Positions 38,598-64,000 of a stretch of DNA of 64,000 nt are shown here, in pieces. The stretch's first letter is position 1. Each line of letters opens with the position of its first letter. The position numbers and the translations under genes were made by a program. The notes under the pieces are model-generated. The model made no database searches. It was not told the origin of the DNA and saw only the letters and a program-made list of their open reading frames with translations. Source of the stretch: an uncultured delta proteobacterium (GTDB taxonomy: Bacteria > Desulfobacterota > Binatia > UBA9968); contig CAVXEP010000006.1 in the NCBI GenBank assembly GCA_963760795.1, positions 68,615-132,614 on the forward strand, given 5' to 3'.

Positions 38598-39851
38598 TCA
38601 TTCGCGCCGTTCGTCATGAATCCAGCCTTTCACCCACGGTAACAGCAAATACGCCGGCATCGACAGCAAGAAAGTGATCGCGAAGTAGTTGGCGAAGCCG
38701 TACTTCTCCGCCCCCAGTCCGCTAATCGCGCCGATCAAACGCCCGGTGAGGGAAAAGACCGACGAGAGAAATGCGTACTGCACGGTCGCGTGCTCCTTCT
38801 GGCAGACGTTCATCAAGAACGCCAGAAACGCGGCGGTGCCAAGGCCGCCGGAAAGCGACTCGAACATCGAGGCGCCATAGAGACCGAAGCGGCCGAGGTC
38901 CAGCCACTCGACCAACGAATAACCGAGATTGGACACCGCCTGTAACAGACCGAGAAACCACACGCCGTGAAAGATGCCGTAGCGCGAGATGAACGCCCCG
39001 CCCATCAACGCGCCGACGACGCTGAGCACGATGCCAAACGTGGTCGGAAACATGCCGATCTGAAACATCAGCTGTTCCTGCACCGGCCAGATCGTCCTGC
39101 CGTAGTCTACCCAAAACGGTTTCACCATCGGCCCGATGGCGAACTCGCCCAACTTGTAAGTCAGGACGAATAAGATCAGCGGGATCACCTTCCAGGTGCC
39201 GGCCCAACCGGCAAAGCCGGCAAGCCAGTGCTCGCGCGCTGCTGCGGGCAAACTCAATTGCGGCACCGCCAACACGGCAAACGCCAGCGCGGCAAAGACC
39301 ACTCCGGCCAAAACGAAAAGTGCATTCCATGCCAACACGCCGGCAAGAAATACCGAACCGCCGCCGACGAAAACCAAGGCAACCCGATAGGCCGAAGCGC
39401 GCACACCGTTGGCCGCGCCCTCTTCGGCGCGATCGACCAAACCGACGGAGTAGGAATCGATGGCGACATCCTGGGTCGCCGATAAAGTCGTCAGCGCCAA
39501 GATCAACACGAGGACGATCACGCCAACAGCGGCGACGTTCACGAACGGTAGCGCGAACAGCACCGCCGCGATGCCGAGCATGCAAGCCAGTATCCACAAG
39601 CGCCGATCGCCGAATCGATGCACCAGCGGCGACCAAAACACTTTCAGTGAATATGGAAGCTCCAGCAACCGCAGTCCGCCGATGGCGCGCAGCGACACGC
39701 CGTTGATACGAAAATAAACCGGCAGGACTTCCCACAAGATCGCCGCCGGCGCGCCTTGAATGAAATAGAGCAAGGCGATGACGCCGAGCTTGCGTCGACT
39801 TGCCGGCGTGCTATCACCGACACCCAAACATTTCCACATCCACGCTGGCAT
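38598..39851 (-). CDS. AmpG-like MFS permease
   Basis: LYFIQG, LKVFWSPLV, SATQDVAID, ATVQYAFLSS. Confidence 0.85.
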   Translation of the reverse strand: MPAWMWKCLGVGDSTPASRRKLGVIALLYFIQGAPAAILWEVLPVYFRINGVSLRAIGGLRLLELPYSLKVFWSPLVHRFGDRRLWILACMLGIAAVLFALPFVNVAAVGVIVLVLILALTTLSATQDVAIDSYSVGLVDRAEEGAANGVRASAYRVALVFVGGGSVFLAGVLAWNALFVLAGVVFAALAFAVLAVPQLSLPAAAREHWLAGFAGWAGTWKVIPLILFVLTYKLGEFAIGPMVKPFWVDYGRTIWPVQEQLMFQIGMFPTTFGIVLSVVGALMGGAFISRYGIFHGVWFLGLLQAVSNLGYSLVEWLDLGRFGLYGASMFESLSGGLGTAAFLAFLMNVCQKEHATVQYAFLSSVFSLTGRLIGAISGLGAEKYGFANYFAITFLLSMPAYLLLPWVKGWIHDERRE

Positions 39852-40009
39852 ATTCGCATTGTTATAGAGACAAACCGCGAAACTTGCTAGCTCATTGTCA
39901 TCGACTCTTCGCTCCAGCGTTATCGCACAGGCAAATCGCGCCGATAATTATCGCGCGAACGCAAGACAAGATTTTCAGAGAAGGAATGATATCAATATCG
40001 ACCACAGAC

Positions 40010-40678
40010 TCACGGCCTATTTGGTTGTCCAGACGCAAGCCAGCGCGCAAACAGCGCTGCCGCCACGGCGCCAACGATCTGCGCCGCAATAAAATTTATC
40101 ACGCTCTGCGGCGCGATCCCGGCGAAGGTATCGCTCATGGCTCGCGCAATGGTTACCGCGGGGTTTGCGAAGGAAGTCGAAGAGGTAAACCAGTAGGCGC
40201 TACCTATGTAAGCGGCCACCGTCGCCGGCACGGCCTGCGCGCGAAATCGCGACGTCAACAAAATCACCAACACCAATCCGAAGGTCGCAACGATCTCACC
40301 GAAACCTTCACCCAACGATGAGCGCACATGGGTAGAGACTTGGACGATATTCAAACCAAACATCGCATGGGCCGCGGCGACCCCGGCAAGTGCGCCGCCG
40401 ACTTGGGCCAGCGAATAGCTCAACCCCTGTCGCGCCGGCATTTGTCCACAACAAACGCTCACCCAGGAAACCACCGGATTAAAATGCGCGCCGGAAATCG
40501 GTCCAAAGATGACGATCAGGACATACAGGCCGGCGCCCGTGGCAATCGCATTCGCCAACAACGCCACCGCCAGATTTCCCTGGGCGAGCTTTTCCCCCAT
40601 GATTCCCGAACCAACCACGATCGCCAACAGCATGGCTGTTCCAATGACTTCCGCGACCACAGATCGAGACAGCATCAT
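40010..40678 (-). CDS. MIP/aquaporin family channel (arsenic-operon type)
   Basis: GAHFNPV and SFANPAVT motifs; last gene of ars operon. Confidence 0.9.
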   Translation of the reverse strand: MMLSRSVVAEVIGTAMLLAIVVGSGIMGEKLAQGNLAVALLANAIATGAGLYVLIVIFGPISGAHFNPVVSWVSVCCGQMPARQGLSYSLAQVGGALAGVAAAHAMFGLNIVQVSTHVRSSLGEGFGEIVATFGLVLVILLTSRFRAQAVPATVAAYIGSAYWFTSSTSFANPAVTIARAMSDTFAGIAPQSVINFIAAQIVGAVAAALFARWLASGQPNRP

Positions 40679-41172
40679 TGCATTCGGCCAAGCTCGTCGA
40701 GTTTTTCTTTGAGAGCGAGCTTGTTAAGCGTATCGAACGGCAAGTTGACGAACAGCGAAATACGCCGGTAAAGCTCCGTATACGCCCGAAGAAATGCTTT
40801 CCGCTTGTCGTCATCGCTGCCCTGAACCGCCGCCGGGTCATGCACCCCCCAATGCGCCGTCATCGGTTGACCCGGCCAGACCGGGCATGCTTCCGCAGCC
40901 GCCTGATCACACACCGTAAAGACAAAATGCATGAACGGCGCGCCCGGTTGGGAGAATTCGTTCCAATCCTTGCTGCGCAGACCTTCGGTCGGCAGATGAT
41001 TCTTTGCTAGCAGTTCCAATGTTAGTGGATTGACACTACCGGCCGGACGGCTCCCCGCGCTAAAGGCTTTGAATTTGGTTTTCCCGATGGAGGTCAGGAT
41101 GGCCTCCGCCAAGATGCTGCGCGCCGAGTTGCCGGTACAGAGAAATAGAACATTGAGAATTTCCTGTTTCAT
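40675..41172 (-). CDS. arsC: Arsenate reductase (thioredoxin-coupled, LMW-PTP fold)
   Basis: CTGNSARS, TVCDQAAAEACP, HWGVHDP. Confidence 0.92.
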   Translation of the reverse strand: MKQEILNVLFLCTGNSARSILAEAILTSIGKTKFKAFSAGSRPAGSVNPLTLELLAKNHLPTEGLRSKDWNEFSQPGAPFMHFVFTVCDQAAAEACPVWPGQPMTAHWGVHDPAAVQGSDDDKRKAFLRAYTELYRRISLFVNLPFDTLNKLALKEKLDELGRMQ

Positions 41173-41183
41173 AAAAATCTCCC

Positions 41184-41361
41184 TTACGCGCAGCACACAC
41201 TGGTTTTTCTAGCCGTGGAATCAGCGATCGGCGCGGTTTCGCAGCAGGCGCCCGTCTGCGCGCGCGACCTGTCGCCGAAAACGGGAATGGTATCGAGGAA
41301 AGTAAAAACGAATGCTGGCATCGAGATTATCGACGGACACGTGCACATGAAAACGTTTCAT
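41184..41361 (-). pseudogene. Internally deleted ArsI/CadI-family VOC lyase
   Basis: N-terminus MKRFHVHVSVDNLDASIRFY joined out of frame to C-terminus LDTIPVFG...ACC...VCCA*; central core missing. Confidence 0.8.
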
Positions 41362-41735
41362 GATGACCTCCTCTTGGCTTTGGACTTCACTACAGCGGGC
41401 GCACAACAATCTCCCAGTGCGGTCTCCACGACGGTCAGACATTTCTGCGGCATACCGTGACAACAATTCTGCGTCAGAAAGGTCATCAACTCGGCCATCC
41501 GCTCGAAGTCAACGGCGTAGTAAAAGAACTGCCGCTCTTGTCGAGCCGTCACCAAGCCCGAACGCGCCAGTTCCTTCAAGTGGAAGGACAACGTCGCGCC
41601 GGGAACTTGCAACGTCGCACCGATGCGCCCTACCGATTCGCCGTCCCGGCCCGCCTCGATAAGCAAACGAAAAATCGCGAGGCGGGTTTCCTGCGCCAGC
41701 GCTGCTAAAGTCGACACCGCCGCCTTTATTTCCAT
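41358..41735 (-). CDS. arsR: ArsR family transcriptional repressor
   Basis: ALAQETRLAIFRLL, TLSFHLKEL, C-terminal NCCHG...C arsenite site. Confidence 0.92.
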   Translation of the reverse strand: MEIKAAVSTLAALAQETRLAIFRLLIEAGRDGESVGRIGATLQVPGATLSFHLKELARSGLVTARQERQFFYYAVDFERMAELMTFLTQNCCHGMPQKCLTVVETALGDCCAPAVVKSKAKRRSS

Positions 41736-41756
41736 ATTTCTAGTATCATCGAAATA
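41735..41756. promoter_or_regulatory. Putative ArsR operator
   Basis: Inverted repeat TATTTC-N10-GAAATA directly at the arsR start. Confidence 0.6.
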
Positions 41757-41813
41757 AATTTCAAGATCAAGTCCGGCGATGCTCTGCCGCCGCAATTGAA
41801 ACCAAGCGCCAAC

Positions 41814-41873
41814 GTAATCCGCGCGCCACGGTGCGTTCATCGACACTTCATTGGCTCGTCGCACAACCGCAAC
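41814..41873 (+). promoter_or_regulatory. Pho-box array upstream of phoX
   Basis: Half-sites at exact 11-bp period: GTAAT 41814, GCCAC 41825, TTCAT 41836, TTCAT 41847, GTCGC 41858, GCAAC 41869. Confidence 0.65.
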
Positions 41874-41921
41874 ATGATGGGGATACAACTCCGAGAAATT
41901 TTTATTCGCAAGGAGACAGAT

Positions 41922-48180: not shown

Positions 48181-48705
48181 ATGAATCTATACTTCATGCG
48201 CCATGGCATCGCGGTCGCCGCCGATGACCCGAGCGTCAGCCATGACAATGAACGGGCGTTGACCAACAAAGGCGTTAAACGCATGCGCCGTGCCGCGCGC
48301 GGACTGCGCCGGCTCAAAATCGAGTTCGATGGAATTCTCACCAGCCCGTTCCTGCGTGCGCGCCAAACGGCAGACATCGTCGCGGCAGTTCTGGGCATGG
48401 AATCGCGTCTGGAAGAACTCACCGAACTAGCGCCGGAAAGTTCCGTGCAGCATCTGATCTTTGGCTTGACTCGCTATCAGGACCGCGACCATCTGTTGCT
48501 GGTCGGTCATCAACCACTGCTGGGGCAAACACTGGCCAGCTTGATCGACTCAAGCCGGGGAGCCAAATCCGAATTCAATCTGCGTAAAGGTTCTTTGTGC
48601 CGAGTCGAAATTGATGGTCTGCCGGCGGACAAGCCGGGAATGCTGCATTGGCTCATGACGGCCAAACAGTTGCGACTCCTGGCCGACCGTCCAACTAAGA
48701 ACTGA
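48181..48705 (+). CDS. sixA: Phosphohistidine phosphatase SixA
   Basis: MRHGIA, RALT, SPFLRARQTA, VGHQP. Confidence 0.88.
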   Translation: MNLYFMRHGIAVAADDPSVSHDNERALTNKGVKRMRRAARGLRRLKIEFDGILTSPFLRARQTADIVAAVLGMESRLEELTELAPESSVQHLIFGLTRYQDRDHLLLVGHQPLLGQTLASLIDSSRGAKSEFNLRKGSLCRVEIDGLPADKPGMLHWLMTAKQLRLLADRPTKN

Positions 48706-48712
48706 TCCCGTC

Positions 48713-49618
48713 ATGAGCGCCGTGCCAACAGATGTAGTGTCAGCGCAAAGCAAGCTGCTCAAACTGACACGAAAGCGCCTGGAAAAGTACGCCACACTGC
48801 TACCCAAAGTCCTCGTCAGCGACGATCCTGAAACGATCCATGACCTGCGCGTCTGGAGCCGCCGCTTACAACAGGCTTTGCGCGTCATCGCGCCACCGCC
48901 TCAAGGCAAAAAGAGCAAGAGATTACTCGCCGAATTGCGCCATGTCCGGCAAACCTTGGGGCCTTGCCGGGACCTCGATGTCAACATCGCCCTACTCGAG
49001 TCCAAGCGTGAGCATAACGGCACCGGCAGCGTTCAAAGGGCCTGGGAATCCATGCGGAGTGAATTAGCATCGCAACGAGGCGTCTTGCTTGACGGCATGC
49101 GGCGTGACATCGCCGGGCAAGACCTATTCAAATTCATCATCCGAGCTCAAAGTTTGATTGTGCGCGCTGAGCCCGACTTCGATCCGCTCGAACAAATTAT
49201 CAAGGCGACGGCAAAGTCGATGGACGGGTGGGAAGAATCGTTTGCGACGACGCGGGAACAGCCGAACGCCACGGCTTTGCATGCCCTGCGTATCGCCGGC
49301 AAGAAATTGCGCTACCGCGCCGAGCTATTAGCCGCCCTCGGCCAACCTAAAATGAATCCGTTGGTCAAATCCCTTAAAGAAATTCAGACCACCCTCGGCG
49401 ACTGGCATGACCGCTCGGTGCTACTGCACCATGTCGCCGAGTTCATCGGCCGGCCAAGCTTTTTGGCGGACCACCCGGACATCGGACGGATATTGCTGGC
49501 GGAAATGGAAAAAGAACGTTTGCGCAGCGACAGTGACGTGGCAAGCGTACTGCAACAGGCCGCCAAAGTGCGCGAAGCTTGGGCACTTTGGAAAGCCAGC
49601 AGCGCAGCGACTGAATGA
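48713..49618 (+). CDS. CHAD domain polyphosphate-binding protein
   Basis: IHDLRVWSRR, RDLDV, LHALRIAGKKLRY, LGDWHD. Confidence 0.9.
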   Translation: MSAVPTDVVSAQSKLLKLTRKRLEKYATLLPKVLVSDDPETIHDLRVWSRRLQQALRVIAPPPQGKKSKRLLAELRHVRQTLGPCRDLDVNIALLESKREHNGTGSVQRAWESMRSELASQRGVLLDGMRRDIAGQDLFKFIIRAQSLIVRAEPDFDPLEQIIKATAKSMDGWEESFATTREQPNATALHALRIAGKKLRYRAELLAALGQPKMNPLVKSLKEIQTTLGDWHDRSVLLHHVAEFIGRPSFLADHPDIGRILLAEMEKERLRSDSDVASVLQQAAKVREAWALWKASSAATE

Positions 49619-49633: not shown

Positions 49634-50329
49634 CTAAATGCCGTTACTGGCGATGACGCTGTCGACGCGATCGCGCAAATCTTTGAACACATCTTCAACA
49701 GAACTTGAAGCGTCGATAGTACCGAAACCATAGGGTTCGACCATTTTATCGAACTCGGCTAACAGCCATTTCTGATAGCGGATGAAACTTTCGTAAAGAT
49801 CATCGCCCATGCGCAGGTCCATGCCAGACTCCCAATAATCGAATCCACCGCTCTGCAAGACTCTCGTTACCAAGTCGTCGATGTTGACCCGCAGATAGAA
49901 AATCGCATCGGGCTTCAAGGCGAAACCGTAGACCTCGCGCAACCACTCTGGGTCCATGCCGCGCACGATCGCCCGCGCCATCAGAGAGTAAATGTAACGG
50001 TCGGTCAGGACGACAAAGCCGGCGCGCAGCGCCGGGATGATTTCGTTTTCCAGACGATCGGCGAAGTCGGTGGCATAGAACAAGCTCAGAGTGATGCCGC
50101 CGAGAGTATTGCCCTCTTTAGCTTGCTTTAACCGCTTGCCAGCCAGAGCCGAGCGGGTCATGCCGGTGTCGAGCACCGCGTGGCCATGATTTTCCAGCCA
50201 CTGTTTCAACAAGCCGATATGAGTCGAGCGGCCGACACCGTCCGTGCCTTCCAGGACAATAAGCTTGCCTTTCAACTCAGCCAGGTCTATTTCCGGGAGT
50301 CCTTCGCCAAAGAAGCTAAATCGAGCCAT
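49634..50329 (-). CDS. Thymidylate-kinase-like protein, subunit 2 of tandem pair (PPK3-like candidate)
   Basis: P-loop variant EGTDGVGRST, TDRY; overlaps upstream paralog. Confidence 0.8.
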   Translation of the reverse strand: MARFSFFGEGLPEIDLAELKGKLIVLEGTDGVGRSTHIGLLKQWLENHGHAVLDTGMTRSALAGKRLKQAKEGNTLGGITLSLFYATDFADRLENEIIPALRAGFVVLTDRYIYSLMARAIVRGMDPEWLREVYGFALKPDAIFYLRVNIDDLVTRVLQSGGFDYWESGMDLRMGDDLYESFIRYQKWLLAEFDKMVEPYGFGTIDASSSVEDVFKDLRDRVDSVIASNGI

Positions 50330-51021
50330 CGTCTCACCTTGGTTTTCTTGGTTCCTTCTAAGGCCGCGGCAACAATGCGGCGCACATCGGCTTGCTGCTC
50401 TTCGATAGACCGCGTCGCATCGATGGCCACCAGGCCGAATTCGTCGACCATCTTTTCATACTCATCGATAATCTGGCTTTGGAATAACCGGAAGCTCTGT
50501 TCGATATCGTCGCTCAAACCGAGATCCATGCCGGCTTCGTAATACTTGATCGCGTCCCGCCCACCTAAAATCCGTTTCATCGAAACATCCAACGGCGTGC
50601 GAAAATAGAAAGCCACGGTTGGTTTCACCGCAAAAGCGTAAAGATCACGCACCCATTGGGGACTGACGCCGCGCACCACATCGCGGGCAAACGCCGTGTA
50701 GACATAGCGGTCGGCGAGCACCACTGCCCCGGCTTTTAATGGTGGAATAATATGATGCTCGGTGCGGTCGGCAAAGTCGGTCGCATGGATCAGGCTGAAG
50801 GTCATCGGCGTCAACATCTTTTTTTTCTTACCCCGTTTGGTGACATCGTGCACCAGCGGCGAGGAGTTCCATTCGCTGAAGTAGACCACGTAACCCTCGG
50901 ATTCCAACCACTTTTTCAACAACGAGAGCTGCGTGCTCTTACCTGATCCATCGATCCCTTCGACAATAAACAGCCGCCCCGCAAGACGGTGTTTACCGAA
51001 CATTTTCATGCTTGTGGTCAT
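50287..51021 (-). CDS. Thymidylate-kinase-like protein, subunit 1 of tandem pair (PPK3-like candidate)
   Basis: EGIDGSGKST, EWNSS, ADRY, YEAGMD. Confidence 0.82.
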   Translation of the reverse strand: MTTSMKMFGKHRLAGRLFIVEGIDGSGKSTQLSLLKKWLESEGYVVYFSEWNSSPLVHDVTKRGKKKKMLTPMTFSLIHATDFADRTEHHIIPPLKAGAVVLADRYVYTAFARDVVRGVSPQWVRDLYAFAVKPTVAFYFRTPLDVSMKRILGGRDAIKYYEAGMDLGLSDDIEQSFRLFQSQIIDEYEKMVDEFGLVAIDATRSIEEQQADVRRIVAAALEGTKKTKVRRWLDLASLAKDSRK

Positions 51022-51096
51022 GCCAGTTAACGCCTAACTCGGCGAAATCTAACAAAGCTCCTAGGCCAATTGCTAGCCCCTATGGTCCAGGACATT

Positions 51097-51112
51097 GTTA
51101 AATCTATGTTAC
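51097..51112 (-). promoter_or_regulatory. Pho box oriented toward the kinase pair
   Basis: Minus strand GTAAC-N6-TTAAC. Confidence 0.55.
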
Positions 51113-51156
51113 GGAATGGTCCGGTTTCACGGCTAAATTTCAACTTCGAACCGTTC

Positions 51157-51194
51157 TTAATCGATTCTTAACCTTGTCGTTACACTTCGGTCAC
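51157..51194 (+). promoter_or_regulatory. Distal Pho-box array upstream of pstS
   Basis: TTAAT 51157, TTAAC 51168, GTTAC 51179, GTCAC 51190. Confidence 0.7.
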
Positions 51195-51303
51195 GCCCCG
51201 ACTTTATGTTCGGCGTCAAATCGGTACGATGATCACCATTTCGCGAACCCGTTGTAAGTCTTGTTTGCGCTGCAAAAGCCCATGACCGGCTTTCACGACC
51301 GAC

Positions 51304-51341
51304 TTCACGCGACGTTAAAGGGTTTGTAACACAACCGTAAC
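51304..51341 (+). promoter_or_regulatory. Proximal Pho-box array upstream of pstS
   Basis: TTCAC 51304, TTAAA 51315, GTAAC 51326, GTAAC 51337. Confidence 0.7.
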
Positions 51342-51376
51342 ATTGGCTCACTAAACATAAGAGAGGAGAATAACCC

Positions 51377-52366
51377 ATGAAGAAAGCATTATTGGCCATA
51401 TCCATTCTCGCCTTGGTCGGCATCGTGCCTCGAGTGGTCAAGGCGCAAATTATTCAGATCGATGGTTCGAGCACCGTGTTTCCGGTTACCGAAGCGGTTG
51501 CTGAAGAGTTCCAAAAGTCGAAAAAGGGCAAAGTCAAAGTCACTGTCGGCATCGCCGGCACCGGCGGCGGCTTCAAAAAGTTCTGCCGCGCCGAGACCGA
51601 CATCAGCAACGCCTCGCGGCCGATTCTAAAATCGGAGATTGAGGATTGTAAGAAAAGCAACGTGCAATTCATCGAACTGCCAGTTGCCTATGACGCCCTT
51701 ACCGTCATCATCAACCCCAAGAATGACTGGGTTAAGTCCCTTACCGTCGCCGATCTGAAAAAAATGTGGGAGCCTGGAGCGCAGGGTAAAGTGTCCACTT
51801 GGAATCAAATCCGGCCTGAATGGCCCAATAGTCCGTTGAAACTATTCGGCCCTGGTGCGGATTCCGGCACCTTCGATTACTTCACCGAAGCGATCGTCGG
51901 CAAAGCCAAGTCGAGCCGCGGCGATTTCACCGCCAGCGAAGATGACAATGTGTTGGTTCAAGGCGTTGCCAACGACCGCAATGCCCTCGGCTATTTCGGC
52001 TTCGCTTACTACATCGAGAACCAAGCGAAGTTGAAGGCAGTAGCCATCGAAACCGCTAAGGGACCAGTCGCACCGTCGGCGAAGACAGTAGAAGACGGTA
52101 CTTACCAACCACTAGCTCGGCCAATCTTCATTTACATCAGCAAGAAATCCCTGGACACCAAGCCTGATGTAAAAGAGTTCGTCGATTTCTATCTAAAAAA
52201 TGCCTCAAAGCTGGTTAAAGATGTGAAATACGTCGCCCTGCCGCCGGGGGCCTATTCGATCGGCGCGGAGCATATAAAAAAAGGGAAGATCGGCACGGTC
52301 TTTGGCGGCACCGCCGAGGTCGGCGTCAAGATCGAGGATTTAATGAAACGCGAAGCGAGTTTCTAG
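51377..52366 (+). CDS. pstS: Phosphate ABC transporter substrate-binding protein
   Basis: [27 protein letters not shown]. Confidence 0.95.
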
Positions 52367-52443: not shown

Positions 52444-53394
52444 ATGTCAAAATCGGAAGTTGCCGTCGATTATACGGATGTCCGGGAACAAATTCGCAGT
52501 CGCTCAGGAAGTGTCGCATCACGGAAGGTCCGCGAGCGTATTATCGAAGCTGGCATGTTCCTGTGCGCGGTTTTCTCAGTCCTAATTACAGTGGGCATTG
52601 TTTGGGTCTTAGTTTACGAGTCCTGGAATTTTTTTAGGAACGTTTCGATTATTGACTTCCTCACCGATACGCAATGGACGGTTCTATTTGAAAACCCGCG
52701 CTACGGCATCATGCCGCTGGTGACCGGAACTCTGGTTACCTCAATGATCGCTCTGGTCGTTGCCCTGCCGCTGGGGACGATCATTGCTATCTATTTGAGT
52801 GAATACGCTAACTCGACGGTTCGTGAAATCCTCAAGCCGATCCTAGAGCTCTTGAGCGCCGTGCCCACAGTCGTTTTCGGCTATTTTGCACTATTGTTTA
52901 TCACGCCAATGCTCCAAAGTATTCTACCCGAGTTGCCTGGATTCAACATGCTCAGCGCCGGTATTGTCATCGGCATCATGATCGTTCCCTATATCAGTTC
53001 GCTGAGCGAGGATGCCATGAAAGCGGTGCCGGTGACCATCCGTGAAGGCTCCTACGCCATGGGCGCTACTCGAGTGCAAACCGCACTCCGCGTCCTGATA
53101 CCCGCGGCTTTTTCAGGCATAGCCTCCGCCTACGTGCTAGGCTTCTCCCGTGCCGTCGGCGAGACCATGGTGGTCGCCCTTGCGGCTGGAACCCAGCCCA
53201 ACCTGACCCTCAATCCAATGGAAGGCGCGGCAACTATCACTGCCTATATCGTCCAAGTGAGCTTGGGCGATTTGCCGCACGGCAGCGTCGCCTATCAAAG
53301 CATCTTTGCCGCCGGTCTGACGTTGATGGTAATGACTCTGGTATTCAACATCGGCGGTTACTTCCTGCGAAAGCGCTTCCGGGAGGTTTACTAG
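52444..53394 (+). CDS. pstC: Phosphate ABC transporter permease
   Basis: [20 protein letters not shown]. Confidence 0.95.
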
Positions 53395-53396
53395 TC

Positions 53397-54320
53397 ATGG
53401 AGAAACCATCTGCATTGGTCATCGAGAAAAGCGTCGCCGGTAATAAGACCCGCGATAAAGTTTTTGCCATCGTCGGCCTGCTCGCCACCTTCATCGGCAT
53501 GCTCACGTTAGCCGCGTTGCTCTTCGATCTTTCGAGCGACGGACTCTCACGCATCAAGCCGCACTTTTTCACCTCGTTCCCGTCACGCTTCGCGGGCCAA
53601 GCCGGAATTCTTTCCTCCTGGGTGGGCACGATCCTCGTGATGATTGTCACGGCGCTGGCGGCGGTTCCGATCGGAATTGGTGCCGGTGTGTATCTTGAGG
53701 AGTATGCGCCGAAGAACTGGCTTACCGCGCTCATCGAGATCAACATTGCCAATCTCGCCGGCGTGCCATCGATTGTTTACGGATTGATGGCACTGGGCCT
53801 GTTTGTTTATCAATTTAGGTTCGGACAAAGCATTCTATCCGCCGGGCTCACGCTAGCGTTGCTGATTTTGCCCATCATTATCGTTGCCACCCGGGAATCC
53901 CTCCGCGCAGTCCCAGGCAGCATGAGAGAAGCCGCCTACGCCCTCGGCGCAACCAAATGGCAGACCACCAGCGACCATGTCCTGCCCTATTCCATGGGCG
54001 GCATTTTGACCGGTGTCATTATCGGCTTATCGCGAGCCATCGGTGAAACGGCGCCGCTCATCACCATCGGCGCTCTGACCTTCATCGCCTTCCTGCCTGA
54101 CGCGCCAGTCAAGGCGGAGTTTCCATTCATCTCATTTGAGTGGCTCTGGTCGCCCTTTTCGGTCATGCCAATTCAAATGTTTAACTGGGTGTCGCGGCCA
54201 CAGGCGGAGTTTCACCTCAATGCCGCGGCAACTGGGTTGGTGCTGATGGTCATGACCCTGGCGATGAATGCCGTCGCGATCTATTTTCGTTACCGCTTCC
54301 GCAAACGGATCAAGTGGTAG
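53397..54320 (+). CDS. pstA: Phosphate ABC transporter permease
   Basis: [30 protein letters not shown]. Confidence 0.95.
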
Positions 54321-54338: not shown

Positions 54339-55217
54339 ATGACAAAAACACCCAATGGAGGTAGTATGAGCTTACAAGAACCAAGGGAACCGACTGCCGT
54401 GAACCGCCCAGCGATGAAAGCTATGGACACCTCCATGATCACGACCAGCACTGGCAAGCTGCATAAAGACATTATCAGCGTTGAAAACGTTGATTTTTAC
54501 TACGGTGAAAAGCGCGCGCTTAAATCGATCAATCTGGCGATTGGTGAAAAAAAAGCTACGGCGTTCATCGGCCCCTCCGGCTGCGGCAAGACCACCTTGC
54601 TGCGCTGCCTCAACCGCATGAACGATCTTGTCCTAGGGACTCGGGTCACCGGGCAAATAAAGCTCGAAGGCAAAAACATCTATGACCCCGACCTGGACGT
54701 CATCAACTTGCGCCGGCGGGTTGGCATGATTTTTCAAAAATGGAACCCCTTTCCCAAGAGCATTTACGAGAATATCATTTATGGCCTGCGCATCGTCGGC
54801 ATCAATAACCGCGCTTACTTGGACGAGGTGGTCGAGAAAAGCCTGCGCCGCTCCGCGCTGTGGGACGAAGTAAAAGACAACCTGCACAAAAGCGCCGCTG
54901 ATCTGTCGGGCGGCCAACAGCAGCGCCTTTGCATCGCGCGTGCCCTGGCGGTCGAACCGGAGGTATTGTTGATGGACGAACCCTGTTCCGCCCTCGACCC
55001 GATCTCGACCGCGAAGATTGAGGAATTGATCCACGAGCTAAAAGACACGTTTACGATCGTCATCGTCACCCATAACATGCAGCAAGCCGCGCGAGTATCC
55101 GACTACACGGCATTTTTCTATCTGGGTGAACTAATAGAATTCGGCGACACCGGCAAGCTCTTCACTGCACCGGAGAAGCGTCAGACTGAAGACTACATTA
55201 CCGGGCGGTTCGGATGA
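54339..55217 (+). CDS. pstB: Phosphate ABC transporter ATP-binding protein (start uncertain)
   Basis: [40 protein letters not shown]. Confidence 0.96.
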
Positions 55218-55231
55218 TAAGGGAGATATCG

Positions 55232-55918
55232 ATGAAAACCGAGCATACCGACAAGAGATACGAAGAAGAGCTGACAAAGCTCCGCGAAGAGATCCTCTAC
55301 ATGGGAGGATTGGTGGAAGACCAGATTCAGAAAGCGGTCAAATCGTTGGTCGACCGCGATTCCGACCTGTGCAATATCATTATAGAACGCGACCATGAAG
55401 TGAACCGTCTCGATGTCAATATCGACGACCAGTGCATTAAACTGTTGGCATTGCACCAGCCCGCAGGCCGCGACCTGCGCTTCATTACCACTGGATTGAA
55501 AATCACCACCGATTTGGAACGGATCGGCGATATGGCCGTCAATATCTGCGAACGCGCGCTGGAATTGAACCAGGAACCCCAGCTCAAACCGTATATCGAT
55601 ATTCCGCGCATGGCGCGCATCTCCCAGCGAATGATACATGAAAGCCTCGACGCCTTTGTCCGGGAAGACACCGAGCTCGCCTTAAAGGTGTGCAAGGACG
55701 ACGACGATGTCGATCAGCTCAACGCGCAGATTTTTCGCGAGACCCTTACGTTCATGCTCGAAAACGTTCAAACCATCAGTCGCGCGACTAAGATTAGCTC
55801 GATCTCAAAATATTTGGAGCGGATCGCCGACCATGCGACCAATATCGCTGAAATGGTGATCTTCATGGTTAAGGGTAAAAGCATTCGTCACATGAAGGTA
55901 CTCCCGCCATCGGTTTAA
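55232..55918 (+). CDS. phoU: Phosphate signalling complex protein PhoU
   Basis: QPAGRDLR, DLERIGD, YLERIADHATNIAE. Confidence 0.95.
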   Translation: MKTEHTDKRYEEELTKLREEILYMGGLVEDQIQKAVKSLVDRDSDLCNIIIERDHEVNRLDVNIDDQCIKLLALHQPAGRDLRFITTGLKITTDLERIGDMAVNICERALELNQEPQLKPYIDIPRMARISQRMIHESLDAFVREDTELALKVCKDDDDVDQLNAQIFRETLTFMLENVQTISRATKISSISKYLERIADHATNIAEMVIFMVKGKSIRHMKVLPPSV

Positions 55919-55924: not shown

Positions 55925-56644
55925 ATGGGAAATGGCGCATACAAGATTCTCGTCGTCGAAGACGAGCCCGATATCCGCAAGCTGGTGCACTACAACCTGG
56001 CTCAGGATCATTACAAAGTTATCGAAGCTGAAAGCGGCGACCAAGCGCTTAAACTTATTCATCGCGATAAACCAAGCCTGGTCATTCTCGACCTGATGAT
56101 GCCGGGAATGTCAGGCTTAGAGGTTTGTAGAGTACTCCGTGGCCAAGACGAAACCGCCAAACTACCGATTCTAATGCTGACCGCCAAGGCGGGTGAAGCG
56201 GATCGCGTTCTTGGGCTGGAATTAGGCGCGGATGATTATCTGGCTAAACCCTTCAGTCCGCGTGAACTGGTCGCCCGCGTGCGCGCAATCCTACGCCGTG
56301 CCAATGGCGCCGGCCGAACGGAAACCCTCCCGGCTTATCAAAAGGGCGGTTTGAAAATCGATTTTGCCACCTACGAAGTATCGGTGCGCGGCAAACCGAT
56401 CAAACTGACGCTCAAGGAGTTCGAGCTTTTAAAATTTCTCGTCGAGAATCCCAGCCGAGTGCTCAACCGCGATCAACTCCTCGATCGCGTCTGGGGCGGC
56501 GAAACCTTCGTCACCCCGCGCACCGTCGACGTGCATATTCGCCGCTTGCGCAAGGCGATCGAAAAGGACGATAGTAATCCCACATGGATTTTGACTCTGC
56601 GCGGAGTCGGCTACAAGTTCGATGAAAAGGCTCTGGAATCTTAG
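55925..56644 (+). CDS. phoB: OmpR-family response regulator PhoB
   Basis: [24 protein letters not shown]; position in pst operon. Confidence 0.92.
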
Positions 56645-58839
56645 TCTCGTTGCTAAAGTATTTTATTCTTACCTTGCGGTCGCTCTGCTGTTGGTCCTGG
56701 GGTTCTATGTTTCCGCCAGCGACCTGATTCGCAGCTTTTATGTCGCCACGCTGAGCAGTCGGATGGACCAAGAAGCCCATCTGCTCGGCCAAGTGTTGCC
56801 ATTTGGCGTGGAAAGCGACGAGCTTGACGCCCTCTGCCGCCAATTCGCCGGCGAACTGGGCTCGCGCATCACCGTGATCGCCCTCGACGGTAAAGTCTTA
56901 GGCGACTCCGCCGAGCCTTCGGCTAAAATGGAAAACCATCGTAGCCGGCCAGAGGTGATCGAAGCGGTAAAATCCGTGACCGGCAGCGCTCAACGCTACA
57001 GCAACACGGTCGGCTTCGACATGCTCTACCGGGCATTTCATCAGCGCGGCGAAAATCAGCAGCGGATCGTCCGTCTCGCCATTCCACTAAAGGACCTCAA
57101 TGGCGTCATCCACGCCATGCGCCGCTCGCTAATCGCGGGATTACTCATGGCTTCGGTAGCCGGACTCTTACTTGCTTGGTGGTTTGCAAAATACCTGGGC
57201 GAGCGCTTGGAACGGCTTGTACACTTCTCTGGCAAGATCGCCCAAGGAAGCTTCCCGCAAGACTTCTTTCCCGGTCACGAGGGAGACGAGATCGGCCTAC
57301 TCGAGCGACACCTGAACGATATGAGCCGGCAAATTCGCGACAATCTTGTCGAAATCACCGGCGAAAAAGAAAAGGCAGATTCGATCTTGCGCTGCATGAT
57401 TGAGGGGGTAGTGGTACTCGATCCAAAGGGTAATGTACTAGTCATCAACGACCAAGCCAAAGCCATGTTTCAATTGCCAGCTGGGCGTGATGTCCACGGC
57501 GCCTCGGTCCTAGAACTCTCCCGCCATCCCGACATCCGGGCGATTTTGAATGAAGTCGTGAAGTTCGATTTTACTAGCCAAAGGTACAGCAAAGAGATCG
57601 AATTCGCGGATGGCATCTGGTTCAGCGTCAACGCAGCGCCGCTACGAAATGCTCAACGTATGACCTTGGGCTCGATACTGGTCTTCCACGAAGTCACCGA
57701 GCTGAAGAGGCTCGAAACCATTCGCTCCGACTTTGTCGCCAACGTTTCGCACGAATTGCGAACACCGCTGACGGCGATCCAAGGCTACATTGAAACGTTA
57801 ATCCATTCTCCACCCAGCAAAGCCGAGGATCGCCAACAGTTCCTCGAAATCATCGAGCGCCACGCCGAAAGACTCGGCCGGTTGACCGAGGATCTCCTGA
57901 CCCTGTCAGATCTCGAGTCGGGCAAGATCCAGATCGCGCCGCGGCCGGTGGATACCTCCCGACTGGTGCAGCAAACACTCGAAGTCTTTTGGAACCGGGC
58001 AGCCAAGAAGAAAATCAAACTCAGCCAAGAAATATCCGCTACATGCGGTAAAATCAGCGGCGACCCGGATCGTTTACAGCAGCTGCTCATCAACCTCGTC
58101 GACAATGCCGTCAAATATACGCCGTCGGGCGGCACCGTGACCCTGAGCGCCGCCGAATGCGAATCGGAAGACGGGGAGCGACAAATCGAAATCTCAGTCG
58201 CGGACAGCGGTGTGGGCATCCCGGAAAAAGATTTACCGCGACTGACAGAGCGCTTCTACCGTGTCGATAAGGCGAGATCACGGGATCTCGGTGGCACAGG
58301 CCTCGGCCTGGCAATCGTCAAACATATCGTTCAGGTTCATCGCGGCGAACTGAGAATCACCAGCGAGCTGAACAAAGGCACGACGATTAGCGTGCGTCTG
58401 CCAATCGCCGAGAACGGTACTGCTGCTAATGCTGGTATTTTATTTCTGTGTACAGGTAATTCTTGCCGCAGCCAGATGGCCGAGGGCTTCGCCCGCCAGT
58501 TGGTTCGCAACGGAGAGAAAATTTATAGCGCGGGAACCAGTCCAAAGGGCGTTCACCCATTGGCGATCCGCGTCATGCAGGAAGTTGGCATCGACATATC
58601 CCAGCCAGGACTCGAAGGGACTCGACGAGATTCCCTTGCAGCAAATAGGTCACCTAATTACTCTGTGCGGCGACGCCGCCGATAGCTGCGCGTCCCTGCG
58701 GGGTGGATTCACGCGCACACATTGGCCGTTGTCCGACCCTGCCGCGGCAGCCGGTACGGAAACAGAAGTCTTGCCCCTATTCCGCACCGTTCGCGATCAA
58801 ATCCAAGACCGGGTCGCCGCTCTCTTCTCCCAGCCATAA
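56622..58839 (+). CDS. phoR: PhoR sensor kinase fused to C-terminal ArsC/LMW-PTP domain (one frameshift near 58602)
   Basis: ENHRSRPEV periplasmic motif, [30 protein letters not shown]; then in frame [17 protein letters not shown]; shifted frame gives [11 protein letters not shown]...HWPLSDP...VRDQI. Confidence 0.88.
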
Positions 58840-58946
58840 ATCTTTTCGTTTTAGTTGAAGCTCCGCGAAACGCGTGATAGATCTCATCGCGTTTCGTATT
58901 CTCGGTTCTCATATTCCAATATTTAACCGTTTTGCTTGGAGCGATC

Positions 58947-59039
58947 ATGGCGAAATTTCAGTTTTTGCCGGCTGAGACGAAATTCTACGACTGGTTTGAG
59001 AAAGCTACGGCGAACCTTCTAGAAGGCGCGGCGGCGTGA
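58947..59039 (+). pseudogene. DUF47 (PhoU-like Pit accessory) N-terminal fragment, truncated at junction
   Basis: GGAG RBS, MAKFQFLPAETKFYDWFEKATANLLEGAA matches typical DUF47 start; stops after 30 codons. Confidence 0.7.
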
Positions 59040-59880
59040 TCCAGGGCTCGGTCCTCGACGCCGCGCTCGTCGATGACTGCATGCGCGAGGCTGGGACCTG
59101 CTTCCATCTCGCAGCCCCGGTGGGGGTGCGGCTGGTGATCGATCGCCCGCTCGACACGCTCGTCGACGGGGTGGAGGGGACGCAGACCGTGGTCGAGGCC
59201 GCCGCCCGCCACGATCGCCGCCTGATCTTCGCCTCGACCTCGGAGATCTACGGCAAGAACAGCACCGGCCGCTCGGCGAGGACTCAGACCGGTTGCTCGG
59301 CTCGCCCTCGAAGTCGCGCTGGAGCTACGCGACGGCGAAGACCTTCGGCGAGGTGCTCGCCTACGGCTATCACCAGGAGCACGGCTCGCGACACGTCGTG
59401 CGGCTCTTCAACACCGTCGGCCCGCGCCAGACCGGGCTACGGCATGGTCCTGCCGCGCTTCGTCGCCAAGCGCTGCTCGGCCAGGACCTGACCGTCTACG
59501 GCGACGGCACCCAGTCGCGGTGCTTCGCCCACGTCGCCGACACGATCGAGGCGCTGATCGCTGCTCGCCGAGCGCGAGGACTCGGTCGGCACCGCGTTCA
59601 ACATCGGCAACCCGAGCTGAGATCACGATCGGCGACCTCGCCGAGCGCGTGATCGAGCGCGCCGAGTCGACTTCGAGATCACCTACGTCCCGTTCGACGT
59701 CGCCTACGAGGAGGGGTTTGAGGAGCTCGGCGTCCGCAAGCCCGACACGACCGCGCTTCGCAAGCTCACCGGCTGGGAGCCGAAGCGATCGATCGAGCAG
59801 GCGATCGACGACGTGATCGCCCCAGCACGAGCTCCTTATCGCGGCCGAACGCGCGCCCGCCGGCCGCGCGTTCGTGAGCG
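59036..59880 (+). CDS. NDP-sugar epimerase/dehydratase, 5'-truncated and multiply frameshifted
   Basis: FHLAAPVGV, ASTSEIYGK, RWSYATAK, RLFNTVGPRQ, VYGDGTQSRCF in different frames. Confidence 0.75.
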
Positions 59881-60879
59881 ACGTCGGCGCGCCGGCGGTC
59901 GGACTCGCCCTCGCGGGCTTCGGCCGGCCGCGATCCGGTCCCGCTTGCGGGCGCTCGCGGTCCGCACCGGGCTTCTTCGACCATCCGGTCGGCTACAAGG
60001 CCCACGGCGCGCGACCCCCTACCTCGGCGGCTTGCGGTGGTGGCGGTTCGGTGCGCCGTGGTCCTGATCGGCGACTTCGCTCGCGGTTCGACCAGCCATT
60101 GGCGTGCGTCTCGCGCCTCCATCGTGGTCGGCACGGTCGACGACCGGGTCAACCTGCCGGTCGCTGCCGGCGTCGCGGTCCAGGTCGGCTGCCGCGATCG
60201 CCCTCTGGACGCGGACCTCGGCTGGGAGCTGTTCGCCAGCGACGCGCTCAACCTCGCGCTCACGGTCCTCTGGGTCGTCGGCCTCGTCAACGCCTTCAAC
60301 CTGATGGACAACCTGGACGGCGCCGCGGGATCGTGTCGCCGCCGCGAGCCCGATCGGGATCGCGTTCTCGCCCTGGTCCACGGCGACCCGCGATCGCCGC
60401 GCTCGCCATCGCGCTCGCCGCCGCGTGCGCCGGCTTCCTGCCGTTCAACCTCGCGCAGCCCTCGCGGATCTTCCTCGGCGACGGGGGCAGCATGCCGATC
60501 GGCCTGCTGGTCGCGGCGCTGATCATGGCTGCGCGTCGTGGGGATGGGCGAGCGCTACCCGCCTTCGCGCCCCTCGCCGGCCTCGCGATCCTCGACACGG
60601 CCCTGGTCGTCGTTTCCCGCGCCGTCGCGGGGCGCCGATGCTGAGCGGCGCCCGCGACCACCTCACCCATCGACTGCTGACCGGCTCGACGCCCAGCGCT
60701 GGTGGCGGCCCGCTGCGATCGGCCAGCGCTGCTCTGGCGCTGCGCGCTCCTCGTCGCTCGCCGAAGCCGGGCGGATCGCGGTCTTCAACGTCGGCGCCCT
60801 CGGCGCCTTCGTCGCGCTCGGCACCATCCTGGCGCTCGGGGCTCGTGCCGAGAGCGCCCGCGCGGAGCGCTCGGGCTGA
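59874..60879 (+). CDS. WecA/TagO/MraY-like polyprenyl-phosphate HexNAc-1-P transferase, multiply frameshifted
   Basis: TPYLGG, NAFNLMDNLDG, IFLGDGGS, RDHLTHRL. Confidence 0.75.
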
Positions 60880-62045
60880 GCCGGATCCGGGTTCTGCGGG
60901 TGATCGCCCGCCTCAACCTCGGCGGACCGGCGCATCAGGCCGCCCTGCTCAGCGGCCGCCGGATGGATCCCGATCGCTTCGAGACCCTGCTCGTCCACGG
61001 TCGCCTCGCGCCGGGCGAGGAGTCGATGGCGGAGCTCGCCGAGCAGGAGGGCGCGCGGATGATCTACCTGCCGACGCTGGGCCAGCCGATCTCGCCACCG
61101 CGCGACGCTCGCGCCCTTGCCGGGCTGCCGGCACGATGGGCGTTTCCGTCCGGACATCGTTCACACCCACACCGCGAAGGCCGGCTTCCTGGGCGCGCGG
61201 CGGCCCGGCTGCGCCCGGCTCCGGCCGGGATCGTCCACACCTTCCACGGCCACGTGCTCGAGGGCTACTTCGGCGCCCGCCAAGACCCGTCTGTTCGCGA
61301 GCTCGAGCGCGGCGCTCGCCCGTCGCACCGACCGCCTGATCGGGGTCAGCCAGGCAACGGTCGACGATCTGGTCCGCCTCGGGGTGGCGCCCGCGAGAGC
61401 AGTTCCAGGTGATCCCGCTCGGGCTCGACCTGCGACCAGTTCGCCGAGGCGATGGGCCGGCACGGGCCATCGAGCTGCGCGACGAGCTCGGGCTCGCGGC
61501 CGACGACGTCGTCTTCACGTCTTCGTCGGTCGCATGGTGCCGATCAAGCGCCTCGATCTTCTGCTTCGTGGGCTTCGCTCGCAGCCGCAAGCGGACGAGC
61601 GCGTCGGCTCGTGATCGTCGGCGACGGCGAGATCGCGATCGGGCTCGAGAGCTCGTGGCGTCCGAGCTCGGCGTCCGCGACGCGGTGCACTTCCTCGGCT
61701 ACCGCAGCGACCTCGCCCGGTCTCCGCCGCCGCGGACCTCGCCGTGATCAGCTCCGACAACGAGGGCACGCCCGTGTCGCTGATCGAGGCCGGCCGCGGC
61801 CGGCCTGCCCGCAGTCGCCACCGATGTCGGGGGGGTGGCGGAGACGATCGTCGGCACGGATCGAGGGCTCCTTGTCTCGCCGGGCCAGTGCCGATGCGTT
61901 CGCAGCCGGCCTGATTCGTCTCGCCGACGATCGCCCCGGTTCGCACGGCATGGATGGGCCGCGATGGCCGACACAGGTGCTGGCCCGAAACGGGGCGGAC
62001 CGTCTCGCACGCCGACCGGCGATCGGTGAGATCATCGAGCTCTGA
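60876..62045 (+). CDS. GT4 glycosyltransferase, multiply frameshifted
   Basis: RVIARLNLGGPA, HTHTAKAG, HTFHGHV, SSDNEGTPVSLIEA. Confidence 0.75.
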
Positions 62046-62159
62046 ACGAGGGGAGTTTCGGCGTCGTCGCGCTCGGCGGCGGGGCTCGCAGGACTCGGTG
62101 TCGCGACCTGCCGAGCCGACCCAGTCACCTGCCGTCGGACTCCGTTTCCCGTTTGAGTC

Positions 62160-63646
62160 GCCGTAGACTCAAGGGCCGCTGCGGGGGAGGGATCGGCGTC
62201 CTCTCGGTCCGTAGCCGTATTCGCCGTACCCATACAGTCCCGAGCGCCCGCGCCCGTGGCCACGACACCGAGGACGTCCGGCTCGCGGCGTCGATCACTA
62301 CCCGCGCCCTCTCGAGTGATCGCGAGTGGTGTGGTTGAGGCGCGCGACGAGGATCACGCCGGAGACCGTCCGAGCAGCGGGCAGCGCGTCGCTGACCACG
62401 ATCAAGGGCGGTGTCGATGACGACCATGTCCGGCTTCGCCCGTCTGCCATCGAGGAGCGTCCATCCGCTCGGACCCGAGGAGGACGCAGGGATTCGAGGC
62501 AGGTGGGTCGGCGGACAGCACGCGCAGACGCCGCCGCCCACGTCGACCTGTCGAGCGGCTCTGGGGTCCGCTCCCCGACGAGGACGGCTGAGCCCGGCCG
62601 AGCGCTCGACGCCAAGTGCGCCCGCCGGCTCGCGGCGACGCAGATCGCCGTCGAGGAGGATGACGTCATGCGCCGCGAGCGCAGCGCGATCGCAAGGCAG
62701 ACGCCACGCGTCGACTCACCGTCCGCGCGGTGGGGCTTCCGACGAGGACGCTCCCGAGCGACCGGTCCACGTTGAAGTAGGTCAGGCTGGCGCGCAGGGT
62801 CTCGAACGCCTCGCGCGCGCCGGGGGCAGGCCGGCGCCCGGGAAACGCGGTTGCGGGAATCGTCGCCAGCAGCGGGGCACCGGTGATCTCCTCGAGCTCC
62901 TCGGTCTCACGCAGGCGGCGATCGAATCTGAGCAGCAGCGGCACCAATGCCGCGACGATCAGCAGGGCGAGGACGAAGCCGACGACGGTGTCGCGCGCGG
63001 GCTGGGGCGAGGCGGGGTCCTCGGGCGGGGTTGCCGGCCCGATCGTCGTCGTTCCGCCCTGACTGGCCCGCAGCGCCTCGAGCTCCTGAACCTGGGCCGC
63101 GCGCTGTTCCTCCTCGAGGGCGGTGTCGGCGGGGTTCGCCTGGCTTTCGAGGGTCTCGATCGCGTCGTCGATCCGCTCCACGGCGCGCTCGGTGCGGATC
63201 TCGCCGACCGTCTCGGCGAACGTGTTCGCGATCGTCGCCGCACGCTGCGGGGTGTCGGCCTCGGCGCGGATCTCGAACAGCTGCGTCACCTGCGACGAGC
63301 GCGACTGAAGTGGGCTCAGCCGGGCGCTGACGTCCTCGAGCAGGTCCTCGAAGCCGGAGGGCGGCTCTCCGAGCTTCTCGAGCACCCGCTTCGCCACCGG
63401 CTCGGTCTCGACCAGCTGGAGCGCGCCCTGCGAGACCGTGACCGAGGTCCCGCCGAGCGTCGTCGCTGTGCTACCTCCGGTCTGCGCCTCGACGGTCACG
63501 GTCGCTGCCCACGTCTTCGGCAGCAGGGAGGAGATCGCGAAGGCGAGCGCGGGGAGCGCGATCAGGATCGCGAGCAGGATCCAGCGGTATCGCCACACGC
63601 GCCGCAGGGCGGCGCGCGGATCGCGTGATCCCCCGGCCTCGTTCAC
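62160..63646 (-). CDS. Polysaccharide co-polymerase/tyrosine kinase (Wzz-CpsD/Wzc-like), frameshifted; 3' end approximate
   Basis: Two-TM Wzz-like N-terminal part, EAFETLRASL, DMVVIDT, GVILVAR. Confidence 0.72.
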
Positions 63647-63688
63647 AGAAGCGGGCAGTGTATAGCCCGGCTATCTTCGCGCCCGACA

Positions 63689-64000
63689 ATGCCTGTGCGG
63701 CCCACCAACCCCGTCCACGACGTCTTCGCGACCGCGCTGGTCCTGATCCTCGTCATCGGTGCCGCCGTAGCGCTGCGCTTCCTGCGCCGGACGCGGCCCG
63801 ACCTGCCGCTTGCCTGGCCGCTGGCGGTGGGGCTCGGCATCAGAGTCCTCATCACCGGCCTGTTGGTGTTGGTCGGTCCAAGCCGGGACTTCCGGGGCGG
63901 CGACGAGATCTTCTTCCTCACCCAGGCCGACGCGATCGCCGACACCCCGTTTGCATCCGAGCTCTGGGTCGAGGCGCTGACCGACCAGCTCCACGTCGCG
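63689..64000 (+). CDS. Membrane protein, 3'-truncated (possible polysaccharide polymerase/GT-C)
   Basis: Open frame to window end with two TM helices followed by GGDE. Confidence 0.5.
   Translation, partial: MPVRPTNPVHDVFATALVLILVIGAAVALRFLRRTRPDLPLAWPLAVGLGIRVLITGLLVLVGPSRDFRGGDEIFFLTQADAIADTPFASELWVEALTDQLHVA

Follow-up and report, generated by a model that had tools for sequence, protein, structure and literature searches.

Can the sensor kinase of a phosphate-starvation system carry an arsenate reductase within its own polypeptide, and what would such an enzyme be doing there? This question is raised by a phoR::arsC gene on contig CAVXEP010000006.1 (assembly GCA_963760795.1) from an uncultured delta proteobacterium of the Binatia. 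The window, i.e., the whole stretch of DNA that was analysed, comprises 64,000 nucleotides (nt; positions 68,615 to 132,614 of the contig), and the coordinates used here are those of the window. Judged by sequence comparison, the fusion is genuine, old, and vertically inherited in an uncultured soil family. As to its role, we give an even chance to the overall reading that a true fusion provides a tethered accessory reductase at the site of phosphate and arsenate entry, and not an obligatory part of signalling.

The open reading frame (ORF) 56622..58685 (forward strand, 687 amino acids, aa) begins with MKRLWNLSL, and the PhoR frame remains open from HATPase_c through a short linker into ArsC with no stop. 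Between the end of HATPase_c and the motif ILFLC (58410-58436), direct reading of the codons gave zero stops and zero in-frame ATG, GTG, or TTG codons. As Pfam also places HATPase_c and then LMWPc along this ORF, the in-frame junction proposed by the first-pass annotation, which had been made from the letters without database searches, holds. That annotation had named one finding that would speak against a fusion, namely a stop and, near 58410-58440, the start of a separate arsC; neither orthologs nor metagenome contigs show this. No stop occurs at the junction in any of four metagenome runs, and the X6 and X8 variants at 58398-58442 are all sense codons. A split into two genes is thus ruled out by the absence of a stop or in-frame start at the junction and of a stop in the four runs.

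The kinase half carries the phospho-acceptor His377 in the H-box SHELRTP (encoded at 57750-57752), followed by the G2 box, and PAS, PAS_4, and PAS_9 all match residues 254-363, between HAMP and HisKA. The P-loop of the ArsC half, CTGNSCRS, is encoded at 58449-58472, with Cys610 at 58449-58451 and Arg616 at 58467-58469. The remaining catalytic residues lie in the +1 frame, which from 58603 to 58839 holds two later Cys and the DP motif (HWPLSDP) and ends with FSQP and a stop codon; Cys682 (58666-58668), Cys689 (58687-58689), and Asp705 of the DP motif (58735-58737) are consequently out of the PhoR frame in the deposited sequence. The domain layout, P-loop, two downstream Cys, and DP motif agree with the earlier description of a PhoR-type kinase joined to a complete ArsC. 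An AlphaFold2 model of the intact ortholog P0003, built on an alignment of fused proteins, had a mean predicted local distance difference test score (pLDDT) of 80.5 and a predicted template modelling score (pTM) of 0.38. In this model, residues 605-736 fold as the alternating strand-helix domain expected for ArsC, long helices span residues 8-58 and 157-207, and linker residues 598-602 have pLDDT values below 50. In a complex prediction, two copies of the kinase core (residues 360-598) were paired with the ArsC domain (residues 600-738); the score was 0.00 against a mark of 0.32, which weighs neither for nor against contact between them.

The first-pass annotation had suspected one extra base near 58602, inside the ArsC domain, and contigs from four of four soil-metagenome runs (four studies; Logan contigs compared over 57900-59500) do leave out one letter, at 58604. 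Each run supplied a single contig across 58604, at a depth of 2.8-11.1. The database protein P0007 has 738 aa, which is the length estimated earlier for the corrected product; its identity to the protein of the window is 99.4% for residues 1-660 and 97.4% for the +1-frame tail, and it continues uninterrupted across the break, where its sequence is GIDISHQDSKGLD. Breaks of this kind are not confined to the fusion gene. When 38 syntenic ORFs of the related genome G003 were compared with the window by tblastn, nine were flagged as matching in more than one frame, about six of them with clean adjacent breaks (phoR-arsC, ppx at 46716/46712, 28012/28010, 27316/27313, 17747/17743, and an overlapping one at 18549-18613), while the other three were weak hits or artefacts of stop-to-stop ORF extension. 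The ppx gene, for instance, is broken into two ORFs (46150-46833 and 46706-47698), with which Pfam agrees. That about six of 38 genes are frame-broken suggests many uncorrected indels in this assembly.

On these grounds, namely the base missing from all four runs, the intact P0007, and the broken neighbouring genes, the frame break at 58604 most likely arose during assembly; the organism itself would make a 738-aa protein. Programmed frameshifting was also considered and is ruled out, since relatives and conspecific contigs read straight through. A frameshift that is real in this strain, which would leave a PhoR of 687 aa with only a truncated and inactive remnant of ArsC at its end, and thus a fusion in decay, seems quite improbable to us. 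It is true that the extra base stands in the deposited assembly, that the metagenome contigs are 95-99% alike to the window and not identical, and hence may stem from sister strains, and that decay of the domain is real in relatives (a deletion in G013, loss of Cys in G045, and frame breaks in G018 and G087). However, besides the agreement of the four runs, the +1 frame downstream is still wholly open with every catalytic residue intact and near-identity to P0007, and both the similar single breaks in neighbouring genes and a chimeric contig end indicate an error-prone assembly.

The fused domain resembles arsenate reductases far more closely than protein phosphatases. The ArsC part of P0003 matched B. 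subtilis ArsC (1JL3) with an expect value (E) of 8e-36 over 130 of 139 residues, in an alignment that pairs the Cys, Arg, and Asp positions, and S. aureus pI258 ArsC at about 1e-29. The E values were 1e-16 to 1e-15 for glutaredoxin-type and mycothiol-type reductases and no better than 1e-4 for protein phosphatases. Among 121 fused proteins (P0003 and the 120 top database hits, a set biased toward close relatives), the catalytic positions C10, C15, and R16 are kept in 121/121, and C82, C89, and D105 in 119/121 each. Mean pairwise identity over 105 full-length proteins is 0.76 for HATPase_c, 0.635 for ArsC, 0.62 for PAS, 0.57 for sCache_like, and 0.14 for the linker. The domain is, accordingly to its sequence features, predicted to be a thioredoxin-coupled ArsC of the pI258 / B. 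subtilis type, complete and selectively maintained. It might instead be a protein phosphatase acting on phospho-Tyr, -Arg, or -His of PhoR, PhoB, or a partner. Points in favour are the Pfam family (LMWPc), a remote similarity to the arginine phosphatase YwlE and to Wzb-type phosphatases, and the presence of a SixA-like His_Phos_1 gene and a further LMWPc gene among the Pho genes nearby. We regard a phosphatase as hardly credible, in view of E values of 8e-36 to 1e-25 with ArsC structures, the end-to-end match to TIGR02691, and the retention of the ArsC-specific Cys82 and Cys89.

The other half is probably a PhoR-type kinase, and the only one of its genome, by its domains and its pst-phoU-phoB context, with predicted phosphate control. 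PnpS and the TIGR02966 PhoR are its top-ranked families, and a search of the genome (G000) found no second PhoR-like gene, the next matches (E about 1e-39) covering the kinase core only. The fusion gene is the last of a packed pstSCAB-phoU-phoB-phoR cluster, in which the gaps are at most 18 nt, or the genes overlap, from pstC on (pstS-pstC 77 nt, pstC-pstA 2 nt, pstA-pstB 18 nt); pstSCAB encodes the high-affinity phosphate ABC transporter. The pst-pho gene order is the same in relatives and in locus L107, and in relatives the fusion gene is followed by a full-length DUF47/PhoU_div gene and a pitA-like transporter gene.

Three surveys of increasing breadth bear on how widely the fusion occurs; their counts include two unpublished genomes, G004 (unfused) and G093 (fused), on which no conclusion rests. 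When 41 genomes, G000 among them, were searched with a 660-aa query, nine genomes of the same genus showed full-length matches in stop-free open frames of 745-807 aa, G008 at two places. When the ORFs were extracted from the loci of 11 relatives, nine carried intact fused ORFs of 732-751 aa; in G002 phoR is unfused and the contig ends soon after, and in G013 PhoR ends with EGILLM and a stop codon 172 nt before the DUF47 gene, which looks like the scar of an ArsC deletion. The two full-length fused copies of G008 lie on different contigs (C141, C202) and are 65-67% identical to the query; they may be paralogs or reflect a mixed bin, the contamination of this genome being about 6%.

Across 31 genomes of the genus (including G000), an ArsC ortholog at least 54% identical to the fused domain is present in 18, lying within an open frame of at least 546 aa in 14. 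The four others are G016, where the locus is cut by the contig start, and the frame-broken G018, G045, and G000; in G018 (open frame of 161 aa) the PhoR frame runs into out-of-frame ArsC sequence, which is a frame break and not a clean stop plus start. The remaining 13 genomes, with a completeness of 60-100%, have only paralogs of at most 45% identity, or none. The ArsC domain thus appears to have been lost repeatedly within the genus while PhoR stays.

At the level of the order, a 199-aa query (HATPase tail plus ArsC) was searched against 123 genomes, and a match was called contiguous if it ran from query residue 1-2 (or 16 at a contig start) to at least residue 193. Family f1 yielded such matches in 37 of its 89 other genomes, which represent 16 of the 23 genera, a recurrence that excludes a chance open frame. 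None was found in the 5 genomes of family f2 or the 28 of family f3, which are sister families. G065 is also fused, via a linker of about 55 residues, and G087 is fused with a frame break. In a sample of the phylum (401 genomes, 255 genera, at least 111 families), which holds one other f1 genome, the fusion was found in G000 alone. In public protein databases, 7989 of 8000 scored candidates had E values of at most 0.001, and among the best 120 hits listed, 120/120 carry PF01451, PF02518, and PF00512, most being 730-760 aa long; the domain-architecture comparison suggested at the outset therefore finds HisKA, HATPase_c, and LMWPc joined in orthologs. In a library clustered at 50% identity, the fused family has about 10 representatives matching from query residue 1, one of them full length (P0127, 740 aa), while a protein cluster search with P0003 returned only ordinary PhoR-like kinase clusters without LMWPc.

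Arsenate enters cells through Pst and Pit, PhoR acts at the membrane with PstB and PhoU, and phoBR operons are usually autoregulated. On the likeliest reading, a fused ArsC would serve membrane-proximal detoxification and the priming of the ars system. Arsenate entering via the phosphate transporters would meet an ArsC held at the inner membrane face, beside the Pst/PhoU/PhoR signalling complex; the fusion would fix the ratio of ArsC to the Pho sensor and keep its supply in step with phosphate scavenging. As(V) would be reduced to As(III) through the cascade Cys610 to Cys682 to Cys689 with thioredoxin. Since ArsR repressors respond to As(III) and not to As(V), the As(III) formed could induce, and leave by, the separate ArsR-controlled ars system.

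The first-pass annotation had instead thought of the ArsC domain as a regulatory input, and this idea we consider possible though not probable. In this case, binding of As(V) or phosphate at the P-loop, or an oxidised Cys682-Cys689 pair arising from arsenate turnover or thioredoxin depletion, would alter the kinase/phosphatase balance of PhoR, and the Pho response would be tuned by the oxyanion or redox status of the cytoplasm. The same annotation had also suggested that the domain might keep arsenate from passing for ample phosphate. Phosphate, sulfate, and arsenate are all ligands of LMW-PTP/ArsC P-loops, and pI258-type ArsC changes its conformation between the reduced and the oxidised state. 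The domain is moreover joined covalently, by about 10 residues, straight onto the catalytic ATP-binding domain. However, the linker is unconstrained in sequence and modelled as disordered, it is far longer in G065, the domain is gone from 13 of 31 genus members that retain PhoR, and C82 and C89, which are needed for turnover only, are kept almost throughout. It is the conservation of these turnover-only Cys, together with the free linker sequence and the repeated domain loss, that makes an accessory enzyme fit better than an integral sensor. In the special form that the ArsC catalytic cycle itself is the input, a signalling role appears unlikely to us; here, arsenate turnover or an oxyanion in the P-loop would drive a redox and conformational switch of Cys682-Cys689 and, as the domain is seated right on the ATP-binding domain, move PhoR between kinase and phosphatase modes, so that the cell would tell arsenate from phosphate and adjust the Pho regulon.

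Several observations nevertheless weigh against a tethered reductase under Pho control. In 114 of 114 pattern-matched proteins (the other seven of the 121 have P-loop variants outside the search pattern), 49-53 residues separate the G2 box from the P-loop Cys, which could be a geometric constraint of the sort that a regulatory module would impose. In G045 (L094, C21:15500-22500), where phoR extends over two frames, the fused domain lacks C10, C82, and C89 (STTNSCRS, SLGRE, ETAP) with the rest kept, which hints at a non-catalytic role or at decay. An ArsR-linked three-Cys ArsC is encoded 15 kb away, so that a second reductase is not obviously needed for detoxification and the fused domain is not the sole arsenate reductase. 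This second ArsC, the constant linker length, and the Cys-less domain of G045 keep the sensor idea alive. Both halves also score below the curated equivalog cut-offs of their families: TIGR02691 covered positions 1-128 of 129 on P0003 with 146.8 bits (cut-off 174.3), and the kinase half reached 374.5 against 400 for PnpS (NF046044), 317.3 against 334.2 for TIGR02966, and 203 against 390 for PRK11006. Finally, we infer co-transcription and Pho control of the fusion gene from gene spacing only: no direct-repeat Pho-box candidate was found upstream of pstS (51000-51400), and a promoter scan was at chance level (5 found, 5.3 expected).

The predicted reductase shares with B. subtilis ArsC (1JL3) and S. 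aureus pI258 ArsC (1LJL, 1JF8) the fold, the C-X5-R P-loop, the Cys pair seven apart, and the Asp-Pro general acid. Unlike the free ArsC of about 135 aa encoded in ars operons, it forms the C-terminal domain of a membrane histidine kinase. The kinase likewise has the HAMP-PAS-HisKA-HATPase_c core of PhoR/PnpS kinases (TIGR02966, NF046044) and a gene placed after pstSCAB-phoU-phoB, but differs from them in its N-terminal sCache_like domain and the extra C-terminal ArsC.

Two loci from other lineages are comparable. In a Smithellaceae metagenome-assembled genome (MAG; L076, 2432-4608), pstA-pstB-phoU-phoR (sCache_like-HAMP-HisKA-HATPase) is followed by an LMWPc gene, a split counterpart of the fusion, although the two genes are 26 nt apart and the 135-aa LMWPc is of another subtype (CVENSNRS, MGCGDEC) and 35% identical. 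A Rubrobacteraceae MAG (L013, 939-2909) encodes a 656-aa HisKA-HATPase_c-LMWPc fusion, which is likewise a kinase with a C-terminal ArsC-like domain, but is 48% identical over the tail, has the P-loop CTHNSARS, has no detected PAS or Cache domain, and shows no pst context on its 3.9-kb contig; it probably arose by a separate fusion event or by transfer. Together, the two loci suggest that the association of a PhoR-like kinase with an LMWP/ArsC domain arose more than once. In Acr3-ArsC of Mycobacterium tuberculosis (Rv2643), an LMWP-type ArsC is attached to a partner that also handles arsenic, a transporter and not a kinase.

Arsenate and phosphate compete for the same transporters, and links between arsenic and phosphate genes have been reported before. 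According to the available excerpts of the two papers, PhoBR of Halomonas sp. HAL1 controls arsenite oxidase (PMC4563254), and arsenic islands contain pst/pho genes (bioRxiv 10.1101/870428). As far as these excerpts go, such links are transcriptional or by neighbourhood, while here the enzyme would lie inside the sensor polypeptide. No paper describing a PhoR-ArsC architecture was found in the full-text literature, judged by titles and the beginnings of abstracts, which is in line with the initial remark that no characterised PhoR of this architecture was known. As far as titles and abstract openings tell, the fusion is thus undescribed, while its kinase and reductase kinds are each well known.

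The link between Pho and arsenate would thus sit in one polypeptide, which an uncultured soil family has retained in at least 16 genera, and by an argument of the Rosetta-stone type Pho signalling would work jointly with arsenate reduction. As a tethered enzyme only, the domain would let cells pre-arm against arsenate as phosphate scavenging switches on; with feedback on the kinase, it would offer a tractable system for how PhoR-type kinases read cytoplasmic signals. There is also a consequence for annotation, because the fused proteins carry labels of one half only: JGI names them PhoR or "thioredoxin type arsenate reductase", NCBI "ATP-binding protein", and public records also "arsenate reductase". 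The NCBI taxon names on the hits are inconsistent as well (Candidatus Binatia, Deltaproteobacteria, Candidatus Limnocylindria), and the deposited genome has a likely false frameshift and a probably chimeric contig end. The features of the locus are collected in Table 1.

Table 1. Coordinates of the fusion gene, its parts, and neighbouring features in the window.
Feature	Position	Strand	Basis and remarks
phoR::arsC fusion gene	56622..58839	+	738 aa with the extra base at 58604 left out
sCache_like, extracytoplasmic, between two hydrophobic segments (residues 38-147)	56733..57062	+	Pfam PF16736, 47.3 bits
HAMP (residues 187-240) and PAS (residues 254-363)	57180..57710	+	Pfam PF00672, PF00989/PF08448
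HisKA (residues 368-434) and HATPase_c (residues 480-596)	57723..58409	+	PF00512, 77.4 bits; PF02518, 110.8 bits
Linker IAENGTAAN(AG), 9 residues	58410..58436	+	Codons read directly
ArsC N-terminal half, in PhoR frame	58437..58603	+	Pfam LMWPc (PF01451), residues 606-660
Single extra base breaking the frame	58604..58604	+	Contigs of 4/4 metagenome runs
ArsC C-terminal half and stop, +1 frame	58605..58839	+	Translation of the +1 frame
Terminator-like hairpin, 3' of the fusion gene	58872..58892	+	Consensus scan, pattern match only
pstS	51377-52366	+	Pfam PBP_like_2
pstC	52444-53394	+	Pfam BPD_transp_1
pstA	53397-54320	+	Pfam BPD_transp_1
pstB	54339-55217	+	Pfam ABC_tran
phoU	55214..55918	+	Pfam PhoU, 168 bits; 4-nt overlap with pstB
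phoB-type OmpR-family response regulator	55925..56644	+	Pfam Response_reg and Trans_reg_C; 3' end overlaps the phoR start by 23 nt
DUF47/PhoU_div 5' fragment (MAKFQFLPAETKFYDWFE...)	58948..59036	+	G003 ortholog matches only with its residues 1-49; PF01865 on the L004 ortholog
Foreign high-GC tail	59037..64000	.	GC profile, contig divergence; probably chimeric join, outside the locus
ars cluster, 15 kb upstream	38598..41888	-	Pfam
MFS	38598-39851	-	Pfam
MIP channel	40010-40678	-	Pfam
Second three-Cys ArsC	40675-41196	-	Pfam; alignment CTGNSARS...TVCDQAAAEAC...HDP
arsR-like HTH_20	41358-41888	-	Pfam

The ars cluster adjoins phoX. In G003, phoX and the MFS gene are only about 235 nt apart, and the arsR-arsC-MIP part looks like an insertion, or like a segment that was lost in G003. 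Another stand-alone arsC was observed in locus L096 (G094:C47, 3317-3952). Its product starts with MKPKSILFLC and shares 78% identity with the N-terminal part of the fused domain; the gene lies divergent from an MFS gene with 67% identity to that of the ars cluster in the window. This arsC may be a fission product or represent the unfused ancestral state.

The window ends with the contig, and its last ~5 kb have a GC content of 70-74%, compared with 56-58% for every contig of the genome. All long metagenome contigs lose their match at 59036, and one of them (4163 nt) runs on for 626 nt with unlike sequence. The join at 59036/59037 cuts the DUF47 gene after about 29 codons, and an epimerase gene begins there in mid-profile. 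The last ~5 kb were therefore probably joined from another, high-GC organism, so that the chimera would begin about 200 nt downstream of the fusion gene. The epimerase gene in the high-GC tail is itself frame-broken.

Further phosphate genes lie upstream in the window, namely phoX, usp, ppx, a degenerate LMWPc gene, a His_Phos_1 gene, and a CHAD gene. The ppx, LMWPc, His_Phos_1 (SixA-like), and CHAD genes form a cluster at 46150-49618. In the LMWPc of this cluster (47720-48160), whose position is kept in relatives, the P-loop is degenerate (CEDNTQLS, with no Arg) and there is no Cys82 equivalent, and it is probably not an arsenate reductase. Finally, two overlapping tandem ORFs (231 and 244 aa) were identified on the reverse strand at 49634-51021, upstream of pstS, each of which matches a full thymidylate kinase profile.

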